Positions 912 to 40,618 of a stretch of 64,000 nucleotides of DNA are shown in pieces. The notes below the pieces were generated by a model. It was given only the letters and a program-made list of their open reading frames with translations, had not been told where the DNA came from and did not search any database. How positions within the stretch are numbered: position 1 is the first letter of the stretch; each line of letters begins with the position of its first letter. The stretch covers positions 69,502,001 through 69,566,000 of the forward strand of contig JAGIQG010000006.1 of assembly GCA_024679065.1 (NCBI GenBank), read 5' to 3'. A program made the translations under genes and the position numbers. The DNA comes from Sphyrna mokarran (Eukaryota).

Positions 912-2500
912 TATAGAACATAACAGCGCAGAACAGGCCCTTCAGCCCTCGATGTTGCACCGACCAATTAGGGAAAAGCAATGACCCTCCAACCTAAACC
1001 AACCTTTTCATCCATAAACTTATCTACTCACCTCTTAAACGCCACCAAACTTGGCGCATCTACAACTGCCGCAGGCAGGGCATTCCATACCCTAACCACC
1101 CTCTGGGTAAAGAACCTACCTCTGATATCCGTCCTATAACTACCACCCCTTAATTTAAAGCTACGTCCCCTCGTGCTAGCTTTCTCCATCCTAGGAAAAA
1201 GGCTATCACTGTCCACCCTATCTAAACCTCTAATCATCTTATATGTTTCAATAAGGTCTCCTCTTAGCCGCCTTCTTTCTAATGAAAACAACCTCAAATC
1301 CCTCAGCCTCTCTTCATAAGACCTGCCCTCCATACCAGGCAACATCCTGGTAAACCTCCTCTGTACCCTCTCCAATGCCTCCACATCTTTCTTATAATGC
1401 GGGGACCAGAACTGCACACAATACTCCAAGTGCGGCCGCACTAGAGTTTTGTACAGTTGCAACATGACGTTGCGGCTCCGAAATTCAATCCCCCTACCAA
1501 TAAAAGCTAAGACTCCATATGCCTTCTTAACAACCTTATCGACCTGATTGCCAACTTTCAGGGATCTATGCACATATACACCAAGATCCCTCTGTTCTTC
1601 AACACTATTAAGAGTCCTACCATTAGCCCTATACTCTACACATTTGTTATTCCTGCCAAAGTGAATTACCTCACACTTTTCCACATTAAACTCCATTTGC
1701 CACCTCTCGGCCCAGCTCTGCAACTTGTCCAAGTCTCTCTGCAAACTATAACACCCCTCTTCACTATCTACCACTCCTCCGACTTTAGTGTCATCCGCAA
1801 ATTTACTAATCCATCCTTCAATACCCTCATCCAGATCATTTATAAAAATTACAAACAGCAGGGGCCCCAAAACAGACCCCTGAGGTACACCACTTGTAAC
1901 CGAACTCCACGATGAATAATTTCCCTCAACCACCACCCTCTGTCTTCTATCTGCTAGCCAATTCCTAATCCAATTAGCTAAATCACCCTCAATCCCATAC
2001 ATCTGCATTTTCTGCAGAAGTCTTCCATGGGCCACCTTATCAAACGCCTTACTAAAGTCCATATATACCACATCAACCGCCTTACCCCCATCCACCTCTT
2101 TGGTCACTTTTTCAAAAAACTCAATAAGGTTAGTAAGGCACGACCTACCCTTCACAAAACCATGCTGACTATCCCCAATCAATTCATTTCTCTCTAAATA
2201 ACTATAAATCCTATCCCTAATAATTCTCTCCAATACTTTGCCCACAACAGAAGTAAGACTCACCGGCCTATAATTCCCCGGAAAGTCTCTATTCCCCTTC
2301 TTGAACAATGGGACCACATTCGCTATCCTCCAGTCTTTCGGCACTAAACCCATAACCAACAACGACCTGAAGATCAGAGCCAGAGGCTCTGCAATCACCT
2401 CTCTCGCCTCCCAGAGAATCCTAGGGTAAATCCCGTCCGGCCCAGGGGACTTATCTAACTTCAAACCCTCAAGAATATCTAGCACATCCTCCTTACTTGA
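912..2500 (-). mobile_element. CR1/HER1-like LINE, 5'-truncated, uninterrupted ORF2 RT segment
   Basis: 485-aa ORF 1028-2485 with KSPGPDG, NYRPVSLTS, YMDFSKAFDKV, SGVPQGSVLGP, KFADDTK, RPHLEYC; short 3' UTR ending in the GGGCTGAAGGGCCTGTT...TGTTCTAT tail. Confidence 0.96.
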
Positions 2501-2711
2501 TAACTATGGATCAGGCACAAGTGCTCATAAAAATATCTGAGGGGAGATGGTTGCCTCATAATAATGTCACTGGGCCAGTAATCCAAAGTTCATGCTATGG
2601 GTGGGCAGAACATGGGTTAAAATCCCACCACAAAATCCAAATTCAGTTATAAATCTGGAATTTAAAGTTAGTTTCAACAATGGGGTGACCTTGAAACTAT
2701 CCTTTATAAAA

Positions 2712-3030
2712 GCATAGAATCCTTAAAGTACATAAGGGTCCACTTAGCCCACTGAGCTTGCATCAACAACAAACCCACTCAGGCCCTATCCCTATAAACC
2801 CATATATTTACTCTACTAATCCCCTGAAACTAAAAGGTAATTTACCATGGTCGGTCCCCCTAAACTCCATATCCTTTGATGATAGGAGAGAACTGGAGTA
2901 CTCAGAGGAAACCCATGCAGACATAGGGAGAATGTGGAAATCCCACACAATCACCAAAGCCAGAATTGAATTTGGGTTCCTGGCACTGTAAGGCAGCAGT
3001 GCTAACCACTGTTCTATAGCACTGACACGG
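2712..3030 (-). mobile_element. V-SINE (HE1-like) with CR1-type tail
   Basis: tRNA-like head (GTGGTTAGCACTGCTGCCTTACAGTGCCAGG), V-domain (TTCTCCCTATGTCTGCATGGGTTTCCTC), ATTCTATG tail. Confidence 0.85.
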
Positions 3031-16730: not shown

Positions 16731-16867
16731 TGGAGAAAGTGAGAGCTGGGACATAATAAAATCGTAATGTAATGTTTTAAAAATTCTCATTTTCATACTA
16801 AAAAGCACTGGGAAATATAAAAGGGCAAATTAAAAATACAAGGAGGGAAGTAATAAGATTTTTTTTT

Positions 16868-17910
16868 AAAGAGCAACAAAGCACGGGAAACAGGCCCTTC
16901 GGCCCAACGAGCCCGCGCCGCCGTCATAACTATATAGTAGCAAATCCATTATCCTATTATATTATTCCTACATAATAATATATTATTCCTAATATGGAAA
17001 ATTCTCACTATAGGGACAATTTGTTTCCCAATAAGCCTAAGAGCGAATTTTTGGGTTGTGGGAGGAAACCGGAGTGCCCGGAGAAAACCCACGCAACCAC
17101 GGGGAGAACGCGCAAACTCCCGCAGACACCGGCCCAATTCCAAGTGTCTGCACAGCCACATCGATAGTCTCTGAGCTGTCATGGTGCCCTTCAGATGGTC
17201 CACATAAAGCATTCATTTATGACACGAGGTACCAGGCAACCCATGAATCAACATCCAAGAGCCGTACCTGCACCACCTGCCGAATGCATGCTCAATGTTG
17301 GTCAAGTATGGACCGAATTACCTGTGGAAAAAAGCCGTAGTTAAACAGTCCTAATATATCCCTCTATCTGCATACCGCTCATGTGGCTGTCCAAGAGACC
17401 CTTAAACAGCCCCAGCGTGCCTGCTCCCACCACCTTACTCGGCAGTGCATTCCACACCCCCACTACCCTTTGTGTGAAAAACTGCCCTCTAATATTCGTC
17501 CTATACATAGCCCCCCTCACCCTATGGCCATGACCCCTCGTCCTATCCATTTCTAAAGGCGGAAAAAGTTTACCTCCATTTACTCTATCTATACCCCTTA
17601 TAATCTTATACACCTCTATGAGATCCCCTCTAAGCCGACGTCTTTCAAGGGAAAACAACCCCAGTCTATCTAATCGTTCCTCATAAGACAGTCCTTCCAT
17701 ACCAGGCAGCATCCTGGTAAACCTCCTCTGCACTCTCTCCAAGGACTCCACATCCTTCCGATAGTACGGCGACCAGAACTGGACGCAGTATTCCAAGTGA
17801 GGCCTAACCAACGTTCTATACAACTGCAACATCAAACTCCTACTCTTGTATTCTATACCCTTTTCTATGAAAGCTAACATACTATACGCCTTCTTTATCA
17901 CCTTCTCCAT
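16868..17910 (-). mobile_element. CR1 LINE 3' part with a ~470-nt 3' UTR containing an embedded V-SINE (copy A)
   Basis: Intact ORF2 C-terminus to the stop at 17341; UTR has V-domain GGAGTTTGCGCGTTCTCCCCGTGGTTGCGTGGGTTTTCTCCGGGCACTCCGGTTTCCTCCCACA; tail GTTGGGCCGAAGGGCCTGTTTCCCGTGCT followed by an A-run. Confidence 0.9.
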
Positions 17911-17920
17911 TTTGATCCAC

Positions 17921-18180
17921 ATGGGCAGGATAATGGTTAGCACTGCTGCCTCACAGCACCAGGGACCCAGGTTCAATTCCCAGCTCAGGTCACTGTCTGT
18001 GCAGAGTCTGCACATTCTCCCTGTGTCTGTGTGGGTTTCCTCCTCGAGTCTGAAAGACATGCTAAATTCTCCCTCAGTGTATCTGAACATGCACCGGAGT
18101 TTGCCGATCAGGGAATTTTCACAGTAATTTCATTGCAATGTTAATGTGAGCCTACTCATGACACTAATAAACTTTAAACA
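17921..18180 (+). mobile_element. V-SINE with alternative (non-CR1) tail
   Basis: tRNA head TGGTTAGCACTGCTGCCTCACAGCACCAGGGACCCAGGTTCAATTCC, partial V-domain, tail ...GTGAGCCTACTCATGACACTAATAAACTTTAAAC. Confidence 0.88.
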
Positions 18181-22505: not shown

Positions 22506-22859
22506 ACAAAACTTTGACAAAGTTGATTTGAAACATCGGCTCTTTTCTCTCCTTAAAAATGCTGCCAGACCTGAGATCTCCAGCATTTTCTCTTTTGGTT
22601 CCCAGCCTCTGATTCACTCTTATAGCCATAGAATTTATATGGCTGGTCCAGTTGGGTTTCTGGCGAATGATAGGCCTCTAATGGGGACCTGTGATGGTAA
22701 TGAAATCCACACGTCCTTCGGTGTCTGTCTGGGTTTCCTCTGAGTACTCCGGTTTCCTTCCACACAGTAGTTTGATGTGCTGCAGTCTGCTATTATTATG
22801 GTTGGGAACAGTCATGGAGCCTCATTTTCATATTAGTTATCTATCACCAGAATGGATGA

Positions 22860-23400: not shown

Positions 23401-23660
23401 CTTCTATGCAGACCTTAACTTTGCAACATGTGTAAAACCATCGTAAAATGTCCAAAACGTTTCCTTTACTGTATCAAAGCAACTCAGAATGTTATTTGAT
23501 GTATATAAAGAACCTGACATTATTGCTTTTTGTGTGGTCATTATGGAATGATAGTAATGTTCTCAGAAATTTATGAATAAAGTATATTTTTTGGAAATAA
23601 ATATTTATAAAAGTGGCTCACATCGGTGTATGTGCGTGCGTGAGAGGTCGCTCTCTTTAC

Positions 23661-24089
23661 CTGTGCGGTCCCGCCGGGCAGGCTGCTGCCAGTCAAGGAG
23701 CGGCTGGCCCAAGGCTCCCCGGCATCAAGACCCCGGGTCTGAGGCCAGCTGCGGTTCCCGGGCTGGGCGCCGTTCGCGCCGCGGTCCCCGAGCTGGGCGT
23801 CGCTCGCGCCGCGGTCCCCGAGCTGGGCGTCGCTCGCGCCGCGGTCCCCGGGCTGGGCGCCGCTCGCGCCGCGGTCCCTGGACTGGGCGCCGCTCGCGCC
23901 GCGGTCCCCGGGATTGGTTCCGCGTCCTGCGTTCTCCAGCCTCTTGCAGGCGGGCTCCTGCAGCGCCTCCGCCTGCAGCTTCCTCTTGGCGCTGCTGTGG
24001 CGCCTCAGGCCCTGATAGTCCACAAACAGGGAAAGGAATCGCTTGCGAGGCTGGTAACACAAAAAGTCTTCCGCTTTCCTCTTCGACAT
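23661..24089 (-). CDS. C9orf40: C9orf40 orthologue, coding exon 1
   Basis: ATG at 24089; MSKRKAE...RKRFL...AKRKL...CKR resembles the N-terminus of C9orf40 (MAKRRAE...WKRLL...RKRKI...SKR); donor CAG|GTAAAG, phase 0; CpG island; adjacent to CARNMT1 as in human. Confidence 0.85.
23751..23912. repeat. 30-bp GC-rich coding minisatellite (5.4 units) in C9orf40 exon 1
   Basis: Units GCGGTCCCCGRGCTGGGCGYCGCTCGCGCC start at 23751, 23781, 23811, 23841, 23871 and 23901 (partial); encodes a 10-aa repeat like PGDRGASGAQ. Confidence 0.97.
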
Positions 24090-24281
24090 CAGCTACTCCA
24101 AGTCGCTGCACTCCGCTGAGCGCCAAATTCAAACCGCAGCCACCCCATCCCCCAGCGCTCCTCCTGCACTGAGACCACCAGGCAAAAGTTTCAACAAGAA
24201 GGTATGCTCGTCTCGGTTAATAACCACAAATAATATTGGACTGCCCCCCAAAGACCGGAGGCTCATATTACAGATGTTTAA

Positions 24282-24650
24282 AGATTATTTTGTTAGTGTC
24301 ACATTACATTAACACTGTAATGAAGTTACTGTGAAAATCCCCTAGTTGCCACACTCCAGCGCTTGTTCCTGTACAGTGAGGGAGAATTTAGCATGGCCAG
24401 TACACCTAACCAGCACGTCTTTTAGACTGTGAGGGGAAACCAGAGCACCTGGATGAGACCCACACAGACATGGGAAGAACATGCAGACTCAGCACAGAAA
24501 ATGACCTAAGCTGGGACTCAAACCCAGGTCCTTGGTGCTGTAAGGCAGCAGTGCTAACCATTGTGCCACTCTGGCCTGAATCCAGCATCTGTTTGGGCAC
24601 ACTGAAGGACAACTTAGCATGACCAATGCACCTAACCAGCACATCTTTCA
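24282..24650 (-). mobile_element. V-SINE with alternative tail, plus a duplicated partial body
   Basis: Head GTGGCACAATGGTTAGCACTGCTGCC ending ~24571, V-domain, tail as in 17921-18180; extra body fragment at 24575-24650. Confidence 0.85.
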
Positions 24651-24859
24651 GAGTGGGAATTAACTCCAGGCGTTCAATGAGGAGTTGACCAACCATAGCT
24701 CTAGATTGGTCACTTCCTCTCTGCCCTGCCTTTGCCCATGATGGCTGCCTCCTAAACTCTGGAGACAGCCCCAGGTTGGTTCAGGAGAATCCTGTGTGCC
24801 AGATGGGTGTCACACTGGTGTGTTTTCCCACTGGTGCCATGGAGGGTCATGCGTGAGTG

Positions 24860-34564: not shown

Positions 34565-36619
34565 CTGCAATAGAAAATAAAAATTAATTTTATCACAGTT
34601 CAGAATCATTTCTGAAATTAATTCTAAAAAATTTCAGAAGGACAAAATATTTACAACTTTAAATAAAAACTGAAAATTCACCATTTTATTTCTCTATAGA
34701 AAAGCTAATATTTGTCTTTTTTCTTTTCACATGATTCTTTATGCATCTTTTCTTAAGCAGGTAATTTTCCAGAAGATTGGAAGCTATTTATTTACACGAA
34801 TATGTTCTGTGGCATGCTGTTCATGGCTTTTATTTTTTCTACTATAAATTAACCTCCTTCAATTGTTTTTGTTGACTATTTCTTATTTTACTTTTCAGAT
34901 ATCTGGTTTTATAATTTTTCTTCCTCGTTATTTTAGCTCTAATGCCCAATATTTATTTCCAATCTTGTCTGATCAAATTTTATTCTGCATGGAAAAAGAC
35001 TGTTTTCATCTCCTATACAAAAGAAACACTAGTTCTCAACACTTTCTGCTAGACCCATCATTCTTGATACCTTTCCCAAGTTTGTAATAGCTGAAAAGTA
35101 GAAAGATTGATATTATACTCAAGAGTACAACTACAATAATAACATTAAATTTCTAGGCACTAATAATTTAAACGAAAGTTTGAAAATACTCCAAACACAG
35201 AAAAATAAAGTAGATGGTTTAATTTTTCTTCATGGACATATTGAAGAATAGTGGTCAGATTCAATAAGGCCAGAGATTCATGATAATTAATTCATTAAAA
35301 GATAATAAACATTTAGTATATTTTCCACTAATAATCTCTGAAGCAAAAAGCAGAAATTTATTCAAGCATGTTTCTGGAGAAAAACAGGATTAATTAATAA
35401 GGCAAGGGATAATCAAGAACAGCACAAAAGTTGGGCATGCTTATAATGCCGAAAACCTTTCTCTTCATAAAATTTCCTATCCTCTGAAATATAGGGATAA
35501 ATATTGTGATGGAGGAAATATTAAGATGTTTAGCCAAATTAAATACATTCCAGGCTGCTAAATTATGCAAGAGAAGAAACAGTAGAGACTCTGACCATCA
35601 TTTTCCAATCCTTGCCGTCTATAGGCAGGGTGCTGGTGGAAAAAAGGACAGTTAATATTATGCACCAACTTTTTGATGAGAATATTTTTGCATATTTTGT
35701 ACCTAATTATGTTCACAAGTTCCAGGCAGATTCCCTTTGAACATTCTCCACAGCCTCATGGATATCAAGATGACAAACTGGTAAATATCTTCAAACTAGT
35801 TATCAGAAGTTCTTAAATTTAAATCAGTTATCTGGTGGGAACATGATGGCATATTGATATTTGTCAGGCTAATTTTTTGGGGACATGTTCAAATTCCTTC
35901 ACTGGAGCTGATGGAATTTGAAATTCAATTAACAAAAACCTGGAATTGAAAACTAGTCTCAAGAATGCTGACCATGGGTAGCATTTGCACAGAATGCTGG
36001 CTGGTGTGGGAAATTCAGAGTGTAAGCTTTCCAACTTCATGGCTGAGTTTTCTTTCAGATTCTCTGGGCACCTGTGCACAGAAAATTTGGGGGCATGGTT
36101 TCCACTGTCATGCTGGCAGGACATAGCCTGATAGAGCCAGCACCTTTGGCCCTATAGAGATTGGGTGGCACCTTTAAATCTCAGTTAAAACAAAACTCAC
36201 GGACATGGGGGAAATTCCCTACAAGCACTCAGGCAGCAGTCCCCAGCCACCCACCTAAAAAAGCAGGGCTCCCAGAAGGCCTCTGGTGCTCCAACTGTCA
36301 GGTAGGCAATGCCAGACAGTGCCTTGCCAGGGGTATATCCTTCTTCCTCCAGGGATTATACTTTGCATCTCTGGCAGATTCCCTCAACTGCTTCTCGTTT
36401 TTCAATACCTGTTGTAAATCTTGCTAAGATGGGAACCCCTTTAATTATGTTTAATTTTATTTAAGTACATTTAAATGAGGCAGGAACGTACGTCACTGGC
36501 AAGCAACAGGGAAAAATCAGAAAATGAGATCTCACCAGTAATAATCTCATTTCCAACCCTCGCGAGATGTGAGCAACTGCCTCACAATGCCAGGAACCCA
36601 TGTTCTATTCTGGGTAAAT

Positions 36620-38665: not shown

Positions 38666-39126
38666 TAAAGCCAAGTGCAAAGAGATTTTTGAACAAGTTG
38701 GAGTTTATGAAAGATGGCAATGGGAGATCAGCATGGAAAATTGGAAAGACTGAGTTTTAATATATCAAAAGTTCAAGAATCCATGCTAACATTCAGACAA
38801 AAGATCCTTCATTGTTACAACTCCACCATACTTTCTGATTTGATATTTTTGACCACTACTGATGTGGTGCTCATGAAGGCTGAAACCTTATTTGCTTCTG
38901 TCAATAGCATATCTATGTCGTAATTTTGGGACCATACAAATTTAGACAATCATGCTATATTGTGAAAGTGTGATACTTCACGTCAATAGATGTGCACTTT
39001 TGGCATGTGTCTAATCATCTAAGGAACAGTGGTCACAATACACATTAAATGCATCGTTATAACTTCGTAGTTCAGATGGCATTAAGATTTCTATTTCAAC
39101 TGCTGCATGAAGAACTTTGAGCAGAA

Positions 39127-39870
39127 ATAGAATAGAATAAAAAAGAGCAAAACAGCATGGGAAACAGGCCCTTTGGCCCAACAAGCCCGCGCCGCCACCT
39201 CGATGTTCCCACTTTTACCCGTGATCCCTGTCTATGTTTATAGATCTATGCATCAAAATCAAATTTGAGACAATTTAGAGAGAATTTGTTCTACCAATCA
39301 GCCTAAGAGCACACCTTTGGGATGTGGGAAGAAACCAGAACACCCAGAGAAAACCCACAGAAGCACAGGGAGAATGCGCAAACTCCCACAGACACAGGCC
39401 CAAATCCATGTATCTGCATAGCACAGCAATAGTCACTGAGCGGTCGTGTTGCCCATTAAATGGTCTAGGTCAAGCATACACTAACGATGTGAAGCATCGT
39501 TAGGATACTCTCGAAAAATTCCAAAATTCTCATGACCCATCGCGTGTATGCCCCTTGTTAGGCAACAAGACGTATCAAAGTACCTGTAGGATAAAACAAA
39601 TACATCAATATCAACTATTTACTATTTGGGAGCCAGGGAACTCCCAAGGCTCATGATCCCTATTTTAAATCAGTTTTCTATATCCTCCATTCCCATTCTG
39701 TTCATGTGCTCATCTAAGTATCTCTTAAATAACTCCAGAGTGCCTGCCTCCACCACTTTACTTGGCAGCACGTTCCATACCCCCACCACCCTCTGTGTGA
39801 AAAAACTCCCTCTAAGCATCCAAATTATACCTTTTACCCCCCTCACCCTAAGCCCGTGACCCCTCTTGTG
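39127..39870 (-). mobile_element. CR1 LINE 3' end with a long 3' UTR containing an embedded V-SINE (copy B), in CARNMT1 intron 7
   Basis: FFTQRVVGVWNVLPSKVVEAG...YLDEHMN; V-domain at ~39295-39395; tail GGCGGCGCGGGCTTGTTGGGCCAAAGGGCCTGTTTCCCATGCT nearly identical to copy A. Confidence 0.88.
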
Positions 39871-40618
39871 CTATTTGAGTCCATCTAGCTTGCAAATCTG
39901 GCAAAAGATAGTATTAATCTCTCAAGGTCATTTACTATTACTGTTCTAAATCTTCAACAAACGTGCTACATATTTTCAGTCTTTTAAAGTTGTGGCAGGA
40001 GTTAAGGTCAGCTGTCACAACTGTAGAGGCATTTATCTTATATTCATGCATGCAACATGCTCTTTGTGCCATACATTGAAATTTTTGCCCTGGGCGCTTT
40101 GTTCATATTGTAATTGTTTATTTTTGCCTGTATGTTTATATAGCAACTACAGAACTTGTTATCTCCTCGGAATAGTACTAAATGAACAAGTAAACACATC
40201 AGTAGCATTTAATTGTACTCTAATAAAGATAACACCTAATAATTTTTTTTAGCAGTTGATACCAAATATTGGACTAGAAATAAGATACACAAATTAACTG
40301 AAAGTCTATGGGACTACATAATTTAGCATATATAAAGATGTTTTGCTCCAAATTCAACAGCAAAGAATATAGTCTTTTTGCTAGGTAAAATGAAGCGTCT
40401 TATGTCCTTAGGTTTTACTTAACACAGTGCTATATATATGTAGCACCAAATACATCTCTAGGCAAACTTTGCTTTGCCACATTTAGACATGTGGTGAGGA
40501 TATCTAATCTAAAAGGATTAAGTGATATACTGACAAGTTAATAATGTGGATTGATCAATAACTGTTCATCGCAATGGCCTCTTTTATTTGTAATAATAGA
40601 TATGGTCAAGGCTCTTAC

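Follow-up and report, generated by a model that had tools for sequence, protein, structure and literature searches.

The stretch of Sphyrna mokarran DNA analyzed here (64 kb, hereafter "the window") is AT-rich and densely populated by CR1 fragments and V-SINEs. Two loci in it, copies A and B, share the same composition on the minus strand: the 3′ part of a CR1 ORF2 is followed by a spacer, an eroded V-SINE head, a V-domain, a linker, and a CR1-type tail (Table 1). The order of ORF2 end, head, V-domain, and tail had been proposed in an earlier reading of the letters alone (hereafter, the sequence-only reading); it was seen in both copies, and all the motifs and coordinates quoted there were present in the sequence. 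Both loci are CR1-type elements, not V-SINEs, and the type is known from these two copies.

Table 1. Features of the two V-domain-bearing CR1 elements and of one neighboring free V-SINE (positions in the window; +, −, strand).
Feature	Position	Strand	Remark
Copy A, V-bearing CR1 element	16863-17913	−	Whole unit
CR1 ORF2 3′ part, copy A, 5′-truncated, frame open	17341..17913	−	Stop TAA 17343-17341
Spacer of 151 nt, copy A, from ORF2 stop to SINE head	17190..17340	−	Homologous to copy B spacer
Eroded tRNA-derived V-SINE head, copy A	17141..17189	−	A box degenerate; T-arm/B box deleted
Predicted hairpin H1, copy A	17122..17151	−	Head stump and V-domain start, spans B-box deletion
V-domain and ~35 nt of downstream SINE body, copy A	17018..17140	−	Boundaries approximate, from alignment to free copies
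Predicted hairpins within copy A V-domain	17121-17102, 17092-17058	−	Folding
AT-rich eroded linker, copy A	16923..17017	−	Occupies position of SINE 3′ body
CR1-type 3′ tail stem-loop and short A run, copy A	16863..16922	−	49/54 identical to copy B
Candidate 5-nt target-site duplication, whole copy A	16858..16862	.	Partner 17909-17913
Free V-SINE, outside the element, comparison copy	17920..18180	+	Adjoins copy A 5′ end, opposite orientation
Copy B, V-bearing CR1 element	39122-39872	−	Whole unit
ORF2 3′ remnant, copy B, 5′-truncated	39670..39872	−	Stop TGA 39672-39670
Spacer of 215 nt, copy B	39455..39669	−	From ORF2 stop to SINE head
Eroded V-SINE head, copy B, deletion as in copy A	39407..39454	−	Profile and alignment
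V-domain and downstream SINE body, copy B	39283..39406	−	Alignment to free copies
Linker, copy B	39197..39282	−	From V/SINE body to tail
CR1-type tail and short terminal repeats, copy B	39122..39196	−	Alignment to copy A, folding
Candidate 6-nt target-site duplication, whole copy B	39116..39121	.	Partner 39874-39879

The ORF2 remnant of copy A comprised 192 open codons and shared 71% amino acid identity with CR1 copy C (1028–2503, minus strand), which has 491 open codons and an RT domain. The Pfam RVT_1 domain was detected in copy C, whereas the copy A remnant had no Pfam match; the RT domain is missing from the remnants of both A (~570 nt of ORF2) and B (~200 nt). Among the matches listed for the copy A protein, the best were bird RT proteins (45–54%), which we take to be those of CR1. 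The stop codon of copy C lies earlier than that of copy A, and the ORF2 similarity extends beyond it. The observed/expected CpG ratio was 0.85 in the UTR of copy A and 0.27 across the 64-kb window, and this CpG richness, together with the intact frame, suggests that the lineage was active recently. The lineage is presumably autonomous, although both copies are 5′-truncated. At positions 17909–17925, the 5′ end of copy A meets the eroded 5′ end of the neighboring free V-SINE head to head, and the 262-codon frame that crosses both is a chance join.

Eight free V-SINE copies with heads, all in the window, formed the comparison set; the fragments at 22721–22764 and 36577–36610 were too short and were excluded from the alignments. 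CR1-type tails were found on the free V-SINEs at 3027, 4610, 12020, and 37185. The V-SINEs at 17920–18180 (+), 24575–24275 (−), and 25450–25161 (−) have a common 3′ tail that differs from the CR1-type one, which suggests a second partner LINE for these three. A partial repeat of a V-SINE body (24581–24658, −) immediately precedes the SINE at 24575. The same part of the window contains a GC-rich island (23571–24092, −) with a frame of 172 amino acids from an ATG and a 30-nt tandem repeat in 5.4 copies (23751–23912); it had no match in Pfam or the Atlas and is perhaps a host first exon.

When a profile of the eight free heads, with one gap allowed, was run over the stretch between the ORF2 stop and the V-domain, the top score fell exactly at both head starts (A, 17189; B, 39454), and 4 of 1000 (A) and 7 of 1000 (B) shuffles scored as high. 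In an anchored version of the test, this was the case for 0/1000 and 1/1000 shuffles, respectively. Local alignment, a cruder test, gave no significant result (194/2000 and 298/2000), and an ungapped profile failed to pick out the copy B head. A positive gapped profile alongside negative simpler tests indicates a head that is real but faint, having been strongly eroded. ARAGORN and Rfam detected no tRNA in the heads of A and B but missed the free SINEs as well, and Rfam gave no match for the element sequences. Scored against the consensus B box, the best match in the head regions of A and B had 5 mismatches in 11 positions each, whereas the eight free copies had 0, 1, 0, 3, 1, 1, 2, and 0. One deletion of 18–19 nt is common to A and B (an 18-column gap in the alignment), and the distance from head to V-domain was 39 nt in both, compared with 58, 58, 43, and 53 nt in four measured free copies. 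Neither Pol III box is thus intact, the A box being degenerate and the B box deleted, in agreement with the sequence-only reading that the B box had been lost. In one free V-SINE (25410–25400 region, −), a separate deletion of ~15 nt immediately precedes the B box, which is retained, suggesting that this part of the head is prone to deletion.

The V-domains of A and B matched those of the free V-SINEs, one example being 87% identity over 62 nt (E = 2e-16). The antisense translation yielded 73 protein matches in HMMER, most of them confined to the V part; in six, the best stretches extended from the V part to query residues 58–76. Recognizable SINE sequence accounts for about 170 nt of the 478–548-nt UTRs. 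Elsewhere in the window, none of the 10 remaining CR1-type 3′ ends had a V-domain in the 450 nt preceding the tail: their V-scan scores were 15–25, with a background of up to 26 and a score of 125.5 for copy B as a control. Other CR1 copies in the window have, as had been stated, short UTRs, that of copy C being ~120 nt long. The spacer of copy A showed no significant match to ordinary CR1 UTRs. The best-conserved block of the two spacers (17333–17318 and 39597–39580, −) consists of a pyrimidine run followed by CAGGTA and resembles adjacent splice acceptor and donor signals. The copy B spacer has strong hairpins of its own at 39470–39514 and 39625–39650, including a 20-nt inverted repeat that is absent from copy A.

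Several observations indicate that A and B have a common origin as V-bearing elements. Their spacers are homologous (alignment score 68, with a maximum of 49 among shuffles; 0/1000 shuffles as high and 0/500 in a second test), and in the head and V-domain, they agree with each other against the free V-SINE consensus at 31 of 156 columns, where at most 7.9 would be expected under independence; the 31 is an upper figure because the gap adjoins some of these columns and CpG decay has affected the free consensus. The branch uniting A and B in the head-plus-V tree had support of 100/99. The ORF ends of A and B were each other's nearest relatives (70%, compared with ≤63% to 12 other CR1 ends), and the two also grouped in a weakly resolved tree of the last ~190 nt of the ORF (75/50). 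In a self-comparison of the window, the similarity between A and B ended at the element ends; the flanks differ, as do the 5′ truncation points. No target-site duplication of at least 5 nt surrounded the SINE part alone in either copy, as independent insertions would have left. The candidate duplications enclose the whole units, and they are not significant alone, with chance rates of 0.48 (wide search ranges) and 0.06 (narrow) in A and 0.17 and 0.02 in B. Taken together, the common spacer, the shared differences, the common deletion, and the unlike flanks and 5′ ends point to one capture followed by retrotransposition as a family, and A and B very probably represent a family derived from a single V-SINE capture by a CR1 lineage, as the sequence-only reading had held. 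The 91% identity of the tails limits decay after insertion to about 9%, so the larger differences presumably arose while the lineage was replicating.

The density of V-SINEs and CR1s speaks for two separate V-SINE insertions behind two CR1 copies: a co-oriented head falls within 250 nt of a given stop by chance at ~1.6%, and one such tandem is present in the window; the ordinary CR1 copy D (3919–3080, −), with its own tail, is followed after ~55 nt by a co-oriented free V-SINE (3027–2705, −). In that tandem, however, LINE and SINE each retain a tail, and the SINE also has a head of its own, whereas A and B have no separate tail before the head and share the features listed above. Segmental duplication of one nested locus is at odds with the absence of common flanks and with the age of the copies, A being young yet 18% divergent from B in the head and V-domain. 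Independent insertion and duplication are both barely credible explanations. The reverse direction of transfer, in which this CR1 UTR had the V-domain from the start and V-SINEs acquired it from a LINE of this kind, is in line with the LINE origins proposed for SINE bodies in a paper that also states that the conserved bodies have yet to be traced to a source (PMC5786205). Nevertheless, a remnant of a tRNA-derived head lies in register upstream of the V-domain in the UTR, V-SINEs range from cnidarians to vertebrates (PMC4824008), and the V-domain was absent from the 10 other CR1 ends and from 11 CR1-like loci in a bacterial and archaeal genome collection; we regard this direction as very unlikely.

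These 11 loci, found with an ORF2 scan of the collection, were mostly short contigs with animal CR1-like sequences in bacterial assemblies; one of them matched only 19 nt of the tail. The several bacterial reference assemblies with such short animal contigs appear to be contaminated. The junction pattern had no match in the collection, a scan of the window with a profile built from both UTRs revealed no further copy with the spacer or junction, and two translated UTR frames had no protein homologue. In the literature searched, we found no description of a V-domain in a CR1 3′ UTR, and no such case is reported in the excerpted text of the Repbase-wide SINE–LINE comparison of 2018 (PMC5786205). 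The family may already be present, uncommented, among the elasmobranch CR1 consensi of PMC13343379 or in Repbase.

The 3′ part of the module bears on how the capture occurred. The linkers of A and B were not homologous to each other (335/500 shuffles as high), and global comparison of the linkers with the 3′ bodies of free SINEs gave 20/1000 and 112/1000 shuffles as high, with no significant local match, whereas the free 3′ bodies matched one another strongly (0/1000). Nonetheless, the V-to-tail spacing was 112 nt in A and 103 nt in B, compared with 88, 88, 89, and 113 nt in free SINEs. The linker thus has the place and length of a SINE 3′ body in eroded form, suggesting that part of the captured SINE decayed while the V part did not. 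The tail core of A and B was 65–69% identical to the CR1 tails at 948 and 58864 and 46–60% identical to four free-SINE tails, A, B, and C have the same inner tail hairpin, and the 3′ ends carry short repeats in B and a short A run in A. The proposal that a whole V-SINE had become the UTR consequently holds in part: the V-to-tail spacing fits it, but a spacer precedes the head, less than half of the UTR is recognizable SINE, little or nothing of the SINE 3′ body can be recognized, and the tail is nearer to those of two CR1 copies.

Stringent LINE ORF2 proteins bind the stem-loop of their own 3′ tail, as shown for zebrafish L2-type elements (PMC4176376). If the ORF2 protein recognizes this stem-loop, a downstream V-SINE with a CR1-type tail would offer a second, distal priming site, and the tandem of copy D and its SINE (3919–2705) resembles the starting arrangement for such a read-through capture. 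The long spacer and the V-to-tail spacing favor the read-through route, whereas the tail similarities and the spacer, in which no old tail was found, weaken it (the best candidate for a CR1 tail remnant, with 22/400 shuffles as high among 22 comparisons, was not significant and was rejected). The same two observations, along with the faint likeness of the linker to SINE 3′ bodies, suit a different route in which a V-SINE, or its 5′ part, was inserted or recombined upstream of the native LINE tail, so that only the head and V-domain are of SINE origin. Against this stand the spacing typical of whole free SINEs and a spacer exceeding the entire short UTR of copy C; moreover, the free SINE tails in the window are old, and their decay reduces the identities, and six other CR1-type tails were likewise only 47–62% alike. 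Insertion upstream of the native tail is a serious possibility, nearly as likely as read-through, and it concerns the route alone, being compatible with a V-domain under selection or a mere passenger.

Conservation between A and B alternated along the element. Identity was 77% in the ORF end, 39/48 (81%) in the head, 74/89 (83%) in the V-domain, 32/40 (80%) in the V extension, and 49/54 (91%) in the tail, and 64% in the spacer, where the baseline of gapped alignment is 60%. The V-domain was inherited through divergence, as the sequence-only reading had proposed. The head and V-domain (145/177, 82%) were more conserved than the third codon positions of ORF2 (34/59, 58%; p = 0.0004) but did not differ significantly from the fourfold sites (13/18 identical; p = 0.34), such that the head and V-domain may be just modestly conserved and the spacer and linker may have changed fast by indels or replacement. 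The claim that the V-domain aids retrotransposition accordingly gains from its contrast with the linker, which is the best internal control, and with the spacer and third codon positions, and gains nothing from the fourfold sites; the 10 other CR1 ends, which did without a V-domain, count against it. We consider selection on the V module fairly probable, and the pattern in the two copies suggests that the V-domain may serve retrotransposition. Its retention without a promoter points to a role at the RNA level.

The alternative is that the capture was real but the V module is useless to the LINE, its similarity between A and B being due to subfamily recombination or conversion, or to fast replacement or slippage in the neighboring segments; the shared peculiarities may even have come from an already divergent V-SINE subfamily. 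The fourfold sites and the equivocal structure tests described below are compatible with a passenger. There is also precedent, since the V-SINE body in MER6 was apparently mere cargo (PMC6887750), and a role as recombination hot spots has been suggested for conserved SINE domains (PMC5499810). With two copies at hand, subfamily recombination may indeed underlie the similarity. However, the alternation of conserved and unconserved segments, from the ORF through a spacer near baseline and a well-conserved head and V-domain to a linker with no homology and a conserved tail, would require several crossovers, and the private differences that A and B have kept in common make conversion by free V-SINEs unlikely. 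A passenger also leaves unexplained why the 3′ body of the captured SINE eroded and the V-domain of the same SINE did not. We therefore consider a passive V module rather unlikely.

Folding of single strands and of the two-row consensus predicted three hairpins (H1–H3) in the head and V-domain. H1 contains an 8-nt perfect inverted repeat in copy A, and its counterpart in a well-preserved free copy is a basal stem topped by the B-box arm. All 25 hairpin pairs were retained in both copies, with four one-sided changes and one two-sided change; the shuffle control for this count (239 of 500) was not informative. The consensus fold had z = −4.6 for a structure chosen from A and B themselves, and an ORF-end control also passed (z = −3.5). 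In a non-circular pair test, p was 0.12 and 0.02 for H1 plus the V-domain, 0.52 and 0.18 for the V-domain alone, and 0.49 and 0.005 for the ORF control. The predictions are suggestive only of a conserved hairpin structure in the head and V-domain, and a mechanism at the level of these hairpins is possible but tentative. A stem-loop in a V subdomain has been reported from invertebrate SINEs and is said to be lost from fish V-SINE folds (PMC4758252); the predicted H3 may correspond to it. A putative covarying stem in the spacer was rejected because its two-sided changes did not exceed those of shuffles (237/300) and its pairs were not retained. A T4 run in the V-domain was likewise dismissed as a Pol III kill switch, as free V-type SINEs have internal T runs (PMC4758252).

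The history that we favor, and consider somewhat probable as a whole, is that a V-SINE was acquired once, in the sense orientation, in the 3′ UTR of a CR1 element, that the lineage continued to retrotranspose, and that the V module came under selection. Either a CR1 transcript would have continued into a V-SINE that lay downstream in the same orientation and had a CR1-type tail, or the RT would have switched templates, and priming by the ORF2 protein at the distal tail would have produced a new 3′ UTR composed of the old UTR, the flank, and the SINE. The Pol III promoter would then have been lost, presumably ending transcription of the cargo as a competing SINE. During drift of the spacer and erosion of the SINE 3′ body, selection on the element RNA would have kept the head stump and the V-domain, most likely as three hairpins that would stabilize the transcript or help to assemble the ORF2 particle, with the tail stem-loop still acting as the ORF2 recognition signal. 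More speculatively, a recently active, autonomous CR1 may have domesticated the V-domain of its own parasite, with the promoter deleted, the stump rebuilt as a hairpin, and the module selected because the V-domain raises retrotransposition in cis. If so, the pan-metazoan V-domain would be an RNA-level enhancer of retrotransposition that is independent of Pol III.

The conserved central domains of SINEs have been proposed to act in SINE transcription, RNA stability, recombination, or host benefit (PMC4824008, PMC5499810). A LINE that keeps a V-domain without a Pol III promoter separates these proposals, since retention of this kind cannot be due to a role in Pol III transcription. A V-bearing LINE also provides an internal evolutionary clock, in the silent sites of ORF2, and an assay in cis, neither of which free SINEs offer. 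Such families would be misannotated as a LINE with an adjacent SINE, and the assignment of SINE–LINE partners in sharks would be blurred.

Like canonical vertebrate CR1 elements (PMC13343379), A and B have an ORF2 C-terminus and a tail hairpin, but their 3′ UTR is long and contains a SINE module, unlike the short UTRs of ordinary copies in the window; the structure section of that paper is silent on such a module. A close counterpart in sharks and rays is the pair of the V-SINE HE1 and the CR1-type LINE HER1 (PMC3747384). Like HE1, A and B have a tRNA-derived head, a V-domain, and a CR1-type tail in the same order, at a spacing similar to that of the free copies in the window. Compared by description, they differ from HE1/HER1 in that the module lies inside the LINE transcript after ORF2 and lacks the B box, and that the flow was from SINE to LINE. 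SINE-like or tRNA-like sequences within LINEs are also known from Ingi-3_AC, with a Ceph-SINE/RTE-like sequence in its 5′ UTR for which recombination with a SINE was suggested, and from RTE-1_DAn, with a tRNA-like stretch (PMC5786205). These belong to other clades, the Ingi sequence lies in the 5′ UTR, and they have no V-domain and no described pattern of promoter loss. Alu/LINE-1 chimeras (PMC13174262) are SINE–LINE fusions as well, formed by template switching or RNA ligation, but as described there, they are individual insertions and not a LINE family that inherits a SINE domain in its 3′ UTR. The closest precedent is MER6/MER6A, a non-autonomous DNA transposon with a headless V-SINE body (PMC6887750): a V-SINE body was captured by another transposon, the Pol III head was disabled, and the carrier spreads the V-domain. 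Unlike MER6, which has no RNA step and has lost the head, A and B retain a head remnant in a carrier that is itself a retrotransposon, and since it belongs to the clade that V-SINEs parasitize, the V-domain stays in the RNA that is copied.
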